Shown here one piece after another: positions 41,401 through 44,400 of a stretch of DNA of 64,000 bases. The position numbers are program-made. This DNA comes from Escherichia coli (GTDB lineage Bacteria > Pseudomonadota > Gammaproteobacteria > Enterobacterales > Enterobacteriaceae): the NCBI RefSeq assembly GCF_044647545.1, contig NZ_CP172818.1; one strand, written 5' to 3'. Numbering within the stretch: position 1 is the stretch's first letter; each line of letters begins with the position of its first letter.

Positions 41401-44400
41401 AGAAAGACAAAAACTGCCGTTAAATCGGCCATATCTTCGGCTTCAGACTCGCTGAGCGCGTAACTGTTTGCGCAGACGGCCATCAGGCTGCCGAATAACA
41501 CTGTTCTGAAAAACGTCTTCATTGCTTCTACCAGGGGCTTAAAGAAGATAAACGTTAGCACACTGCGAGCGAGGCGACGACCATTATTGTCGATTAAATT
41601 GTGTCTGCGACTTGACCTTCCCGTAAGGGGAAGGACTATGCTCAACGTTTGATTTTGTTTCGCCTGCTTAAGAATAAGGAAATAACTATGCAACGTCGTG
41701 ATTTCTTAAAATATTCCGTCGCGCTGGGTGTGGCTTCGGCTTTGCCGCTGTGGAGCCGCGCAGTATTTGCGGCAGAACGCCCAACGTTACCGATCCCTGA
41801 TTTGCTCACGACCGATGCCCGTAATCGCATTCAGTTAACTATTGGCGCAGGTCAGTCCACCTTTGGCGGGAAAACCGCAACTACCTGGGGCTATAACGGC
41901 AATCTGCTGGGGCCGGCGGTGAAATTACAGCGCGGCAAAGCGGTAACGGTTGATATCTACAACCAACTGACGGAAGAGACGACGCTGCACTGGCACGGGC
42001 TGGAAGTACCGGGTGAAGTCGACGGCGGCCCGCAGGGAATTATTCCGCCAGGTGGCAAGCGCTCGGTGACGTTGAACGTTGATCAACCTGCCGCTACCTG
42101 CTGGTTCCATCCACATCAGCACGGCAAGACCGGACGTCAGGTGGCGATGGGGCTGGCTGGTCTGGTGGTGATTGAAGATGACGAGATCCTGAAATTAATG
42201 CTGCCAAAACAGTGGGGTATTGATGATGTCCCGGTGATCGTTCAGGATAAGAAATTTAGCGCCGACGGGCAGATTGATTATCAACTGGATGTGATGACCG
42301 CCGCCGTGGGTTGGTTTGGTGATACGTTGCTGACCAACGGTGTAATCTACCCGCAACACGCTGCCCCGCGTGGCTGGCTGCGCCTGCGTTTGCTCAATGG
42401 CTGTAATGCCCGCTCGCTCAATTTCGCCACCAGCGACAATCGCCCGCTTTATGTGATTGCCAGCGACGGCGGTCTGCTACCTGAACCGGTGAAGGTGAAC
42501 GAGCTGCCAGTGCTGATGGGCGAGCGTTTTGAAGTGCTGGTGGAGGTTAACGACAACAAACCCTTTGACCTGGTGACGCTGCCGGTCAGTCAGATGGGGA
42601 TGGCGATTGCGCCGTTTGACAAGCCGCATCCGGTAATGCGGATTCAGCCGATTGCCATTAGTGCCTCTGGTACTTTGCCAGACACATTAAGTAGCCTGCC
42701 TGCGTTACCTTCGCTGGAAGGGCTGACGGTACGCAAGCTGCAACTCTCTATGGACCCGATGCTCGATATGATGGGTATGCAGATGCTGATGGAGAAATAT
42801 GGCGATCAGGCGATGGCCGGGATGGATCACAGCCAGATGATGGGCCATATGGGGCACGGCAATATGAATCATATGAACCACGGCGGGAAGTTCGATTTCC
42901 ACCATGCCAATAAAATCAACGGTCAGGCGTTTGATATGAACAAGCCGATGTTTGCGGCGGCGAAAGGGCAGTACGAACGTTGGGTTATCTCTGGCGTGGG
43001 CGACATGATGCTGCATCCGTTCCATATCCACGGTACGCAGTTCCGTATCTTGTCAGAAAATGGCAAACCGCCAGCGACGCATCGCGCAGGCTGGAAAGAT
43101 ACCGTTAAGGTAGAAGGTAATGTCAGCGAAGTGCTGGTGAAGTTTAATCACGATGCACCGAAAGAACATGCTTATATGGCGCACTGCCATTTGCTGGAGC
43201 ATGAAGATACGGGGATGATGTTAGGGTTTACGGTATAAAAAGACCGTATTCAGAAATATGCCCGGATCTCTCCGGGCATTAGTTACTTCACATCATCCGG
43301 CAGCGCATAAGCCACAATATAGTCGCCCATCTTCGTACCAAATGAACCGTGACCGCCTGCGGAGATCACCACATACTGCTTGCCATTCACTTCATAGGTC
43401 ATTGGCGTAGCCTGACCACCCGCTGGTAAACGGCCCTGCCACAGTTTTTCACCGTTGCTCATGTTGTAAGCGCGCAGGTAGTTATCTGCCGTAGCGGCGA
43501 TAAACAGTACGTTACCCGCTGTGGAGATTGGCCCGCCCAGCATCGGCATACCCATATTGAACGGCACCGGTACAGGCATCGGGAATGGCATACTGTCCTG
43601 CGGCGTACCAATACGTTTCTTCCACACCACTTCATTGGTTTTCAGATCCAATGCCGAGATATAGCCCCATGCTGGCTGTTTACATGGCAGGCCAAACGGT
43701 GAGAGGAACGGGTTGAGCGTGACACCATACGGTACACCGTACTGTGGCTGAATGCCGGATTCCGTACCCGTGCCTTTGGCATCTTTCGGCTGTTCCATCG
43801 GGTTACCAGGACCGCGTGGGATCAGTTTCGAAACAAACGGCAGTGCCATTGGGTTGGCAATTGCCACTTCACGATTCGGATCAACGGAAATCCCGCCCCA
43901 TTCGAACATCCCCAGGTTACCCGGGAAGACCAGCGTACCCTGTTCAGATGGCGGGGTGAAAATGCCTTCATAGCGCATCTGGTGGAACATCACGCGGCAC
44001 ACCAGCTGGTCAAACATGGTGGCTCCCCACATATCCGCACCGCTCAAATCTTTCGTCGGACGGAAGCTCAGTTCAGAAAACGGTTGAGTTGGGGTTACGT
44101 AATCGCCTTTGGCAGCACCTTGGGGAACCGGTTTTTCCGGTGCAGGAACCACCAGTTCGCCATTACGACGATCGAGCACAAAAATGTTGCCGGTTTTCGC
44201 CGGAGCATAAATGACTGGCACTTTCTGACCATTAACGGTGATGTCCGCCAGCGTCGGCTGTGCCGGAAGATCCATATCCCACAGGTCGTGGTGAACGGTC
44301 TGGTAGCTCCACGCCAGTTTCCCGGTAGTGGCATTCAGCGCCAGAATCGAGCTGGCATAACGTTCCTGTTCCGGTGTGCGGTTACCGCCCCAGATATCCG

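Follow-up and report, generated by a model that had tools for sequence, protein, structure and literature searches.

Which promoter serves the copper oxidase gene cueO on this E. coli chromosome, and is it controlled by the copper sensor CueR? From the raw sequence of the 64-kb window (the whole stretch of DNA that was analysed), a first-pass annotation had proposed that a promoter of the MerR type lies just upstream of cueO and that its architecture matches control by CueR. Based on our follow-up analysis, we consider it close to certain that this element is the native E. coli cueO promoter itself (PcueO), a sigma-70 promoter of the MerR/CueR class, and not a mere relative of it. The anatomy of the element, its match to the CueR consensus and to the copA promoter (PcopA), its conservation and the identity of the gene come from our own analysis; its dependence on CueR, its induction by copper and the distortion of its DNA are taken from the literature. 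No result of the analysis argues against the reading of a CueR-controlled cueO promoter.

Genomic context and identity of the downstream gene

The window is a piece of the E. coli chromosome running from murF to pcnB, and it is collinear with strain MS6198 at 99.9% identity. An indel of ~180-265 bp relative to MS6198 is located at ~52243-52330, close to the 3' end of rpnC and to a small hypothetical gene, and an 88-bp stretch of the window near rpnC matches two MS6198 places that are ~266 bp apart. Internal direct repeats were seen in aceF (30433-31298, ~80% identity, probably lipoyl domains) and in yacH (34122-34498, ~78% identity). Rfam matches above the gathering score were PssrA at 10063-10152 (+), at the ftsA-ftsZ junction; STnc40 at 15798-15867 (+), at the 3' end of secA and before mutT; naRNA4 at 16271-16350 (+), after mutT; and tp2 at 27624-27737 (-), antisense between pdhR and aceE.

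The local gene order is speD, speE, yacC (-), a 165-bp intergenic region, cueO (+) and gcd (-), and the features that matter for the gene side of the locus are as follows:

41175..41522, minus strand: yacC, the divergent neighbour (annotation and NCBIfam YacC equivalog; context only)
41688..43238, plus strand: cueO coding sequence, 516 amino acids plus stop (RefSeq annotation of identical DNA; NCBIfam CueO equivalog)
41688-41771, plus strand: predicted Tat signal peptide, residues 1-28, with an RRDFLK motif (PDB CueO chains start at residue 29)
42750-42887, plus strand: Met-rich segment, residues 355-400 (14 Met in 46 residues)

Judged by the protein that it encodes, the gene downstream of the promoter is the CueO multicopper oxidase. 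The protein reaches 981.6 bits against the NCBIfam equivalog NF008205 (cut-off 525), with residues 1-516 covered, and the CueO chains of the PDB, in which the mature protein begins at residue 29, score ~1190 bits against it and have essentially the same sequence. Its N-terminus, MQRRDFLK and later AVFA/AE, reads as a twin-arginine signal, and export is predicted. The equivalog, the PDB chains and the RRDFLK motif thus bear out the earlier description of the gene as a Tat-type multicopper oxidase, with export as a prediction. The Met-rich insert that had been placed at about 42750..42885 was also found: methionine makes up 14 of the 46 residues at 355-400 versus 5.6% of the protein overall, and the segment precedes the C-terminal cupredoxin domain. 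The longest cueO open reading frame, when called mechanically, starts at a TTG at 41649, 39 nt upstream of the ATG at 41688 and roughly at the transcription start placed below; this TTG is very unlikely to be the cueO start, since the ATG is the start that agrees with the RefSeq annotation, the Shine-Dalgarno sequence and the Tat motif.

Anatomy of the cueO promoter

The promoter is positioned between yacC and cueO, and 45 nt separate it from the cueO ATG downstream. Direct reading of 41300-41900 gives ...gcgacTTGACCTTCCCGTAAGGGGAAGGACTATGCTcaacg..., in which the following elements were located:

41612..41617, plus strand: -35 hexamer TTGACC, matching TTGACA at 5 of 6 bases (direct reading and pattern search)
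41618..41636, plus strand: spacer of 19 bp, 2 bp above the 17-bp optimum (direct reading and pattern search)
41616..41634, no strand assigned: CueR operator, the perfect dyad CCTTCC-CGTAAGG-GGAAGG (repeat finder and core-pattern search)
41637..41642, plus strand: -10 hexamer TATGCT, matching TATAAT at 4 of 6 bases (direct reading and pattern search)
41643..41687, plus strand: stretch between the -10 and the start codon (sequence reading)
41676-41680, plus strand: Shine-Dalgarno sequence AAGGA (an AAGGA block conserved in the alignment)

The first-pass annotation had set TTGACC and a -10-like hexamer 19 bp apart at 41612-41642, and these coordinates are exact to the base. It had also described an inverted repeat, CCTTCCC-n5-GGGAAGG, carried by the spacer. 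The repeat finder recovers this as a perfect repeat at 41616-41634, with arms at 41616-41622 (CCTTCCC) and 41628-41634 (GGGAAGG) that are 7 nt each, 100% complementary and separated by a 5-nt gap; its placement wholly within the spacer does not hold, however, because the left arm starts within the -35 and shares the last 2 bp (CC) of TTGACC. PMC8169799 includes the flanking A as well, and by that count the overlap of the dyad with the -35 is 3 bp.

From the position of the -10 alone, cueO transcription would be expected to start near 41649, ~7 nt past the -10. A literature search for a mapped cueO transcription start gave nothing usable. When 41100-41800 was scanned for sigma-70 promoters with 16-18-bp spacers, no promoter was returned. 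Therefore, cueO has no competing canonical promoter in this region, and the empty scan is what would be expected if the promoter with the 19-bp spacer is the right one and serves cueO.

The operator is of the CueR type

The published core binding sequence of CueR is CCTTCC-N7-GGAAGG (PMC8169799, citing Yamamoto and Ishihama 2005), and Permina et al. give a slightly longer form, ACCTTCCC-(5)-TGGAAGGT (PMC1526738). The cueO dyad matches the published core at 12 of 12 bases. A CueR-dependent, MerR-class sigma-70 promoter was defined here as one with its -35 and -10 hexamers 19-20 bp apart and with an operator dyad centred in the spacer and overlapping the -35; at the level of sequence, the element agrees with this class in its spacer, in the placement of its dyad, in its core match and in the register that it shares with PcopA.

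Comparison with K-12 shows that the whole 31-bp promoter is identical to K-12 PcueO (yacK; NC_000913.3 137007-137037), with the flanking yacC and cueO genes shared. Over 111 aligned bp the sole difference falls at 41610, 2 nt upstream of the -35, where the window has A and K-12 has G, and no functional consequence of this difference is expected. The K-12 copA promoter, as read from the copA-cueR region, is cTTGACCTTCCCCTTGCTGGAAGGTTTAACCT, with the copA operator at L004 5428-5446. E. coli PcopA resembles PcueO in its cTTGACCTTCCC...GGAAGG half-sites, its 19-bp spacer, the register of its operator and its -10 of the TAnnCT type, and the two promoters align without a gap from the -35 to the -10. 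They differ in the central 6 bases (GTAAGG in PcueO, CTTGCT in PcopA), in the -10 (TATGCT in the PcueO of the window, TAACCT in PcopA) and in the length of the perfect dyad arms, which is 7 bp in cueO and 6 bp in copA.

The founding example of the class is the MerR-controlled mer operator-promoter of Tn21/Tn501. As is generally known, it has in common with PcueO a 19-bp spacer, a dyad operator within the spacer, a regulator that sits on the DNA whether or not metal is present, and activation through distortion of the DNA, whereas the operator sequence and the metal are different. In the mer system, the operator represses the divergent merR promoter as well; cueR, by contrast, is encoded elsewhere, ~377 kb from cueO in K-12. 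It lies outside the 64-kb window, and since 5,424 of 5,426 complete E. coli genomes have it, the source genome almost certainly carries it too.

In published work CueR has two classical targets, of which cueO is one (PMC9396075, PMC5329002, PMC1526738). The activity of PcueO-lacZ is induced by copper, and deletion of PcopA and PcueO abolishes the specific in-cell FRET between CueR and DNA (PMC9396075); for activation by CueR and copper, Outten et al. 2000 and Stoyanov et al. 2001 are both cited in PMC8169799 and PMC5329002. The 12/12 core match, the PcopA register and the literature on cueO as a CueR target together uphold the earlier proposal that the architecture matches CueR control.

Since the long-spacer design is common to MerR-family operators, the promoter might instead be mainly under a regulator other than CueR, for example its paralogue ZntR, SoxR or a GolS-like sensor. 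The half-sites, however, are of the CueR type and identical to those of PcopA, and E. coli is not known to carry a GolS-like gene. A CueR paralogue with a CueR-type site does exist in Salmonella (PMC1526738), but in published work PcueO is ascribed to CueR, and the in-cell signal is lost when CueR carries DNA-binding mutations (PMC9396075). We consider it very improbable that a regulator other than CueR is the main one here.

Conservation of the promoter in E. coli and across Enterobacteriaceae

Of the 5,424 E. coli genomes with the 31-mer at 41612-41642, 5,412 have it at 100% identity and 12 have one base changed. A search with the 501 bp that surround the site hit 5,424 of 5,426 complete E. 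coli genomes, with yacC and cueO as the annotated genes and with many chromosomes at 100% identity; in contrast to the 31-mer, just 2,242 of the 5,431 records that match this longer region reach 99% identity or more. A few of these matches are on plasmid-labelled records: 3 of 5,425 places for the 31-bp promoter, and 10 places for the 501-bp region.

For the comparison between species, one genome of each was scanned with the protein as guide, which yielded 80 CueO loci, from Escherichia, Citrobacter, Salmonella, Enterobacter, Klebsiella, Raoultella, Kosakonia, Kluyvera and other genera, and thus 81 upstream regions with the window included. The arrangement TTGAC[CG], exactly 19 bp and TAnnnT was found in 80 of the 81 (79 of the 80 other Enterobacteriaceae species), 33-45 nt before the ATG. 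Among the 80 promoters so recovered, again counting the window, the -35 is TTGACC in 78 and TTGACG in 2; the -10 of the relatives is TATGCT in 40 and TAAGCT in 38. When 76 distinct upstream regions were aligned, no other intergenic segment was as well conserved as the promoter block (mean 0.90 versus 0.71-0.75 for the flanks), and column conservation reaches 0.996 in the -35, 0.97 in the left half-site and 0.92 in the -10. The right half-site (41629-41634 in the window) is more variable: it is GGAGGG in 39 of 80, just 13 of the 80 have the perfect GGAAGG, and other relatives have GAAAGG, GTAGGG or GCAGGG opposite CCTTCC.

The single exception among the 80 cueO orthologs is Intestinirhabdus alba (L079), where no recognisable CueR-type promoter was detected in the 4.5-kb locus with up to 3 mismatches allowed. 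Its cueO open reading frame begins with GTG, 6 nt upstream of the matched ATG, and the upstream neighbour is an open reading frame resembling the C-terminus of a methyl-accepting chemotaxis protein, which replaces yacC.

The variation in the right half-site bears on a second explanation, namely that the dyad, instead of binding a protein, acts as a nucleic-acid hairpin (an RNA structure, a terminator, or part of the 5'-UTR of a yacC transcript with its start further to the right). The strand does fold, as single-stranded DNA, into a stable 7-bp stem (-7.4 kcal/mol, z = -3.55). Against this, no T-run follows the dyad on either strand and the terminator scan reported nothing there, the dyad is located upstream of the cueO start placed above, and its fixed spacing to the -35 and -10 would be needless for a hairpin. 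Furthermore, the GAAAGG, GTAGGG and GCAGGG variants break the pairs with CCTTCC: the sequence of the half-site is kept rather than its base-pairing, as expected of a site bound by protein and contrary to a hairpin. We dropped the terminator or hairpin reading on these grounds and regard it as extremely unlikely.

The least tenable alternative is that chance set an ordinary inverted repeat, with no regulatory role, between hexamer-like sequences: perfect 7-nt repeats with a 5-nt gap are not rare by themselves, with 14 in the window versus ~3.7 in shuffles, but the complete match to the CueR core, its invariance over ~5,400 E. coli genomes and the exact 19-bp spacing kept ahead of a copper oxidase gene in 79 of 80 other species leave this explanation with almost no probability, and conservation has already effectively refuted it. 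What exceeds chance is the combination of hexamers, spacer and dyad, rather than the inverted repeat alone. TTGACN-N19-TANNNT occurs once on both strands of the window together, and CCTTCC-N7-GGAAGG without mismatches has only one site, the cueO dyad. Even when up to 3 mismatches are allowed, the composite TTGACCTTCC-N7-GGAAGG-NN-TANNNT has one match in the window, and 100 dinucleotide-preserving shuffles gave no match.

The divergent yacC gene

The intergenic region contains a second strongly conserved block at 41550-41562 (AACGTTAGCAC), whose columns are mostly at least 90% conserved among the 76 Enterobacteriaceae sequences. It includes an extended -10-like motif, TGcTAACGT, on the minus strand at 41560-41552, ~30 nt upstream of the yacC ATG (41522) and ~55 bp from the dyad. 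From its motif and position, this block is a candidate yacC promoter. Permina et al. 2006 name the locus the 'yacC-yacK divergon' (PMC1526738), and our literature search for regulation of yacC by copper found no report past this remark. The CueR operator may conceivably serve such a divergon, in that the distortion of 41616-41634 by apo- or holo-CueR could modulate yacC too; we rate this as improbable. If it were true, the pilotin-like lipoprotein YacC would be copper-responsive.

Proposed mechanism of copper-dependent activation

We suggest a plausible mechanism for activation of cueO that follows what has been established for CueR. The protein occupies its dyad with or without metal, on the DNA face opposite RNA polymerase, and in its apo form it keeps the promoter repressed through the shape of the DNA; Cu(I)-CueR both bends the 19-bp spacer and undertwists it, so that the -35 and -10 come to lie ~55 A apart, like those of a promoter with a 17-bp spacer, and the hexamers are re-phased for sigma-70 (PMC8169799, PMC5329002). 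The cryo-EM and crystal structures of CueR were solved on PcopA DNA and not on PcueO (PMC8169799). From the identical half-sites, spacing and register of the two promoters, we infer that the same structural mechanism would apply to PcueO.

At PcueO, a good -35 (TTGACC) and a moderate -10 (TATGCT) that are 19 bp apart would be too distant and wrongly phased for RNA polymerase to contact the two together. A homodimer of CueR would sit on CCTTCC-N7-GGAAGG, centred on the spacer, at the face of the DNA away from the polymerase. Without Cu(I), the bound dimer would keep the DNA in its repressed shape; with Cu(I), or also Ag(I) or Au(I), it would kink and undertwist the spacer. This distortion would shorten and re-phase the distance between the two hexamers, the sigma-70 holoenzyme could then form an open complex, and cueO would be transcribed. 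The CueO product would be exported by the Tat pathway and would oxidise periplasmic Cu(I).

This scheme changes one point of the first-pass annotation, which had recognised a suboptimal-spacer design whose DNA is untwisted by the regulator on metal binding. The long spacer stands. The untwisting on metal binding needs to be reworded, as CueR binds with or without metal and bends the DNA as well: since its site is occupied with or without Cu(I), the metal alters the conformation of the bound complex and is therefore not a simple trigger of untwisting.

Significance

Dependence on copper and cueR, as well as binding by CueR, has already been published for this same promoter sequence, so that the biology is already known and nothing in it is new; the DNA-distortion mechanism of CueR has likewise already been solved structurally. 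The value of the case is that of a positive control: a reader of raw sequence correctly recognised a textbook metal-sensing promoter, with its long spacer, its dyad operator and the copper gene that follows it. The established picture, in which CueR-controlled cueO and copA make up the Cue copper-homeostasis system of E. coli, is unchanged. To it our survey adds a small descriptive point: across Enterobacteriaceae, the 19-bp spacing and the left half-site of the cueO promoter are nearly invariant, and the right half-site in most cases differs from that of the perfect Escherichia dyad.
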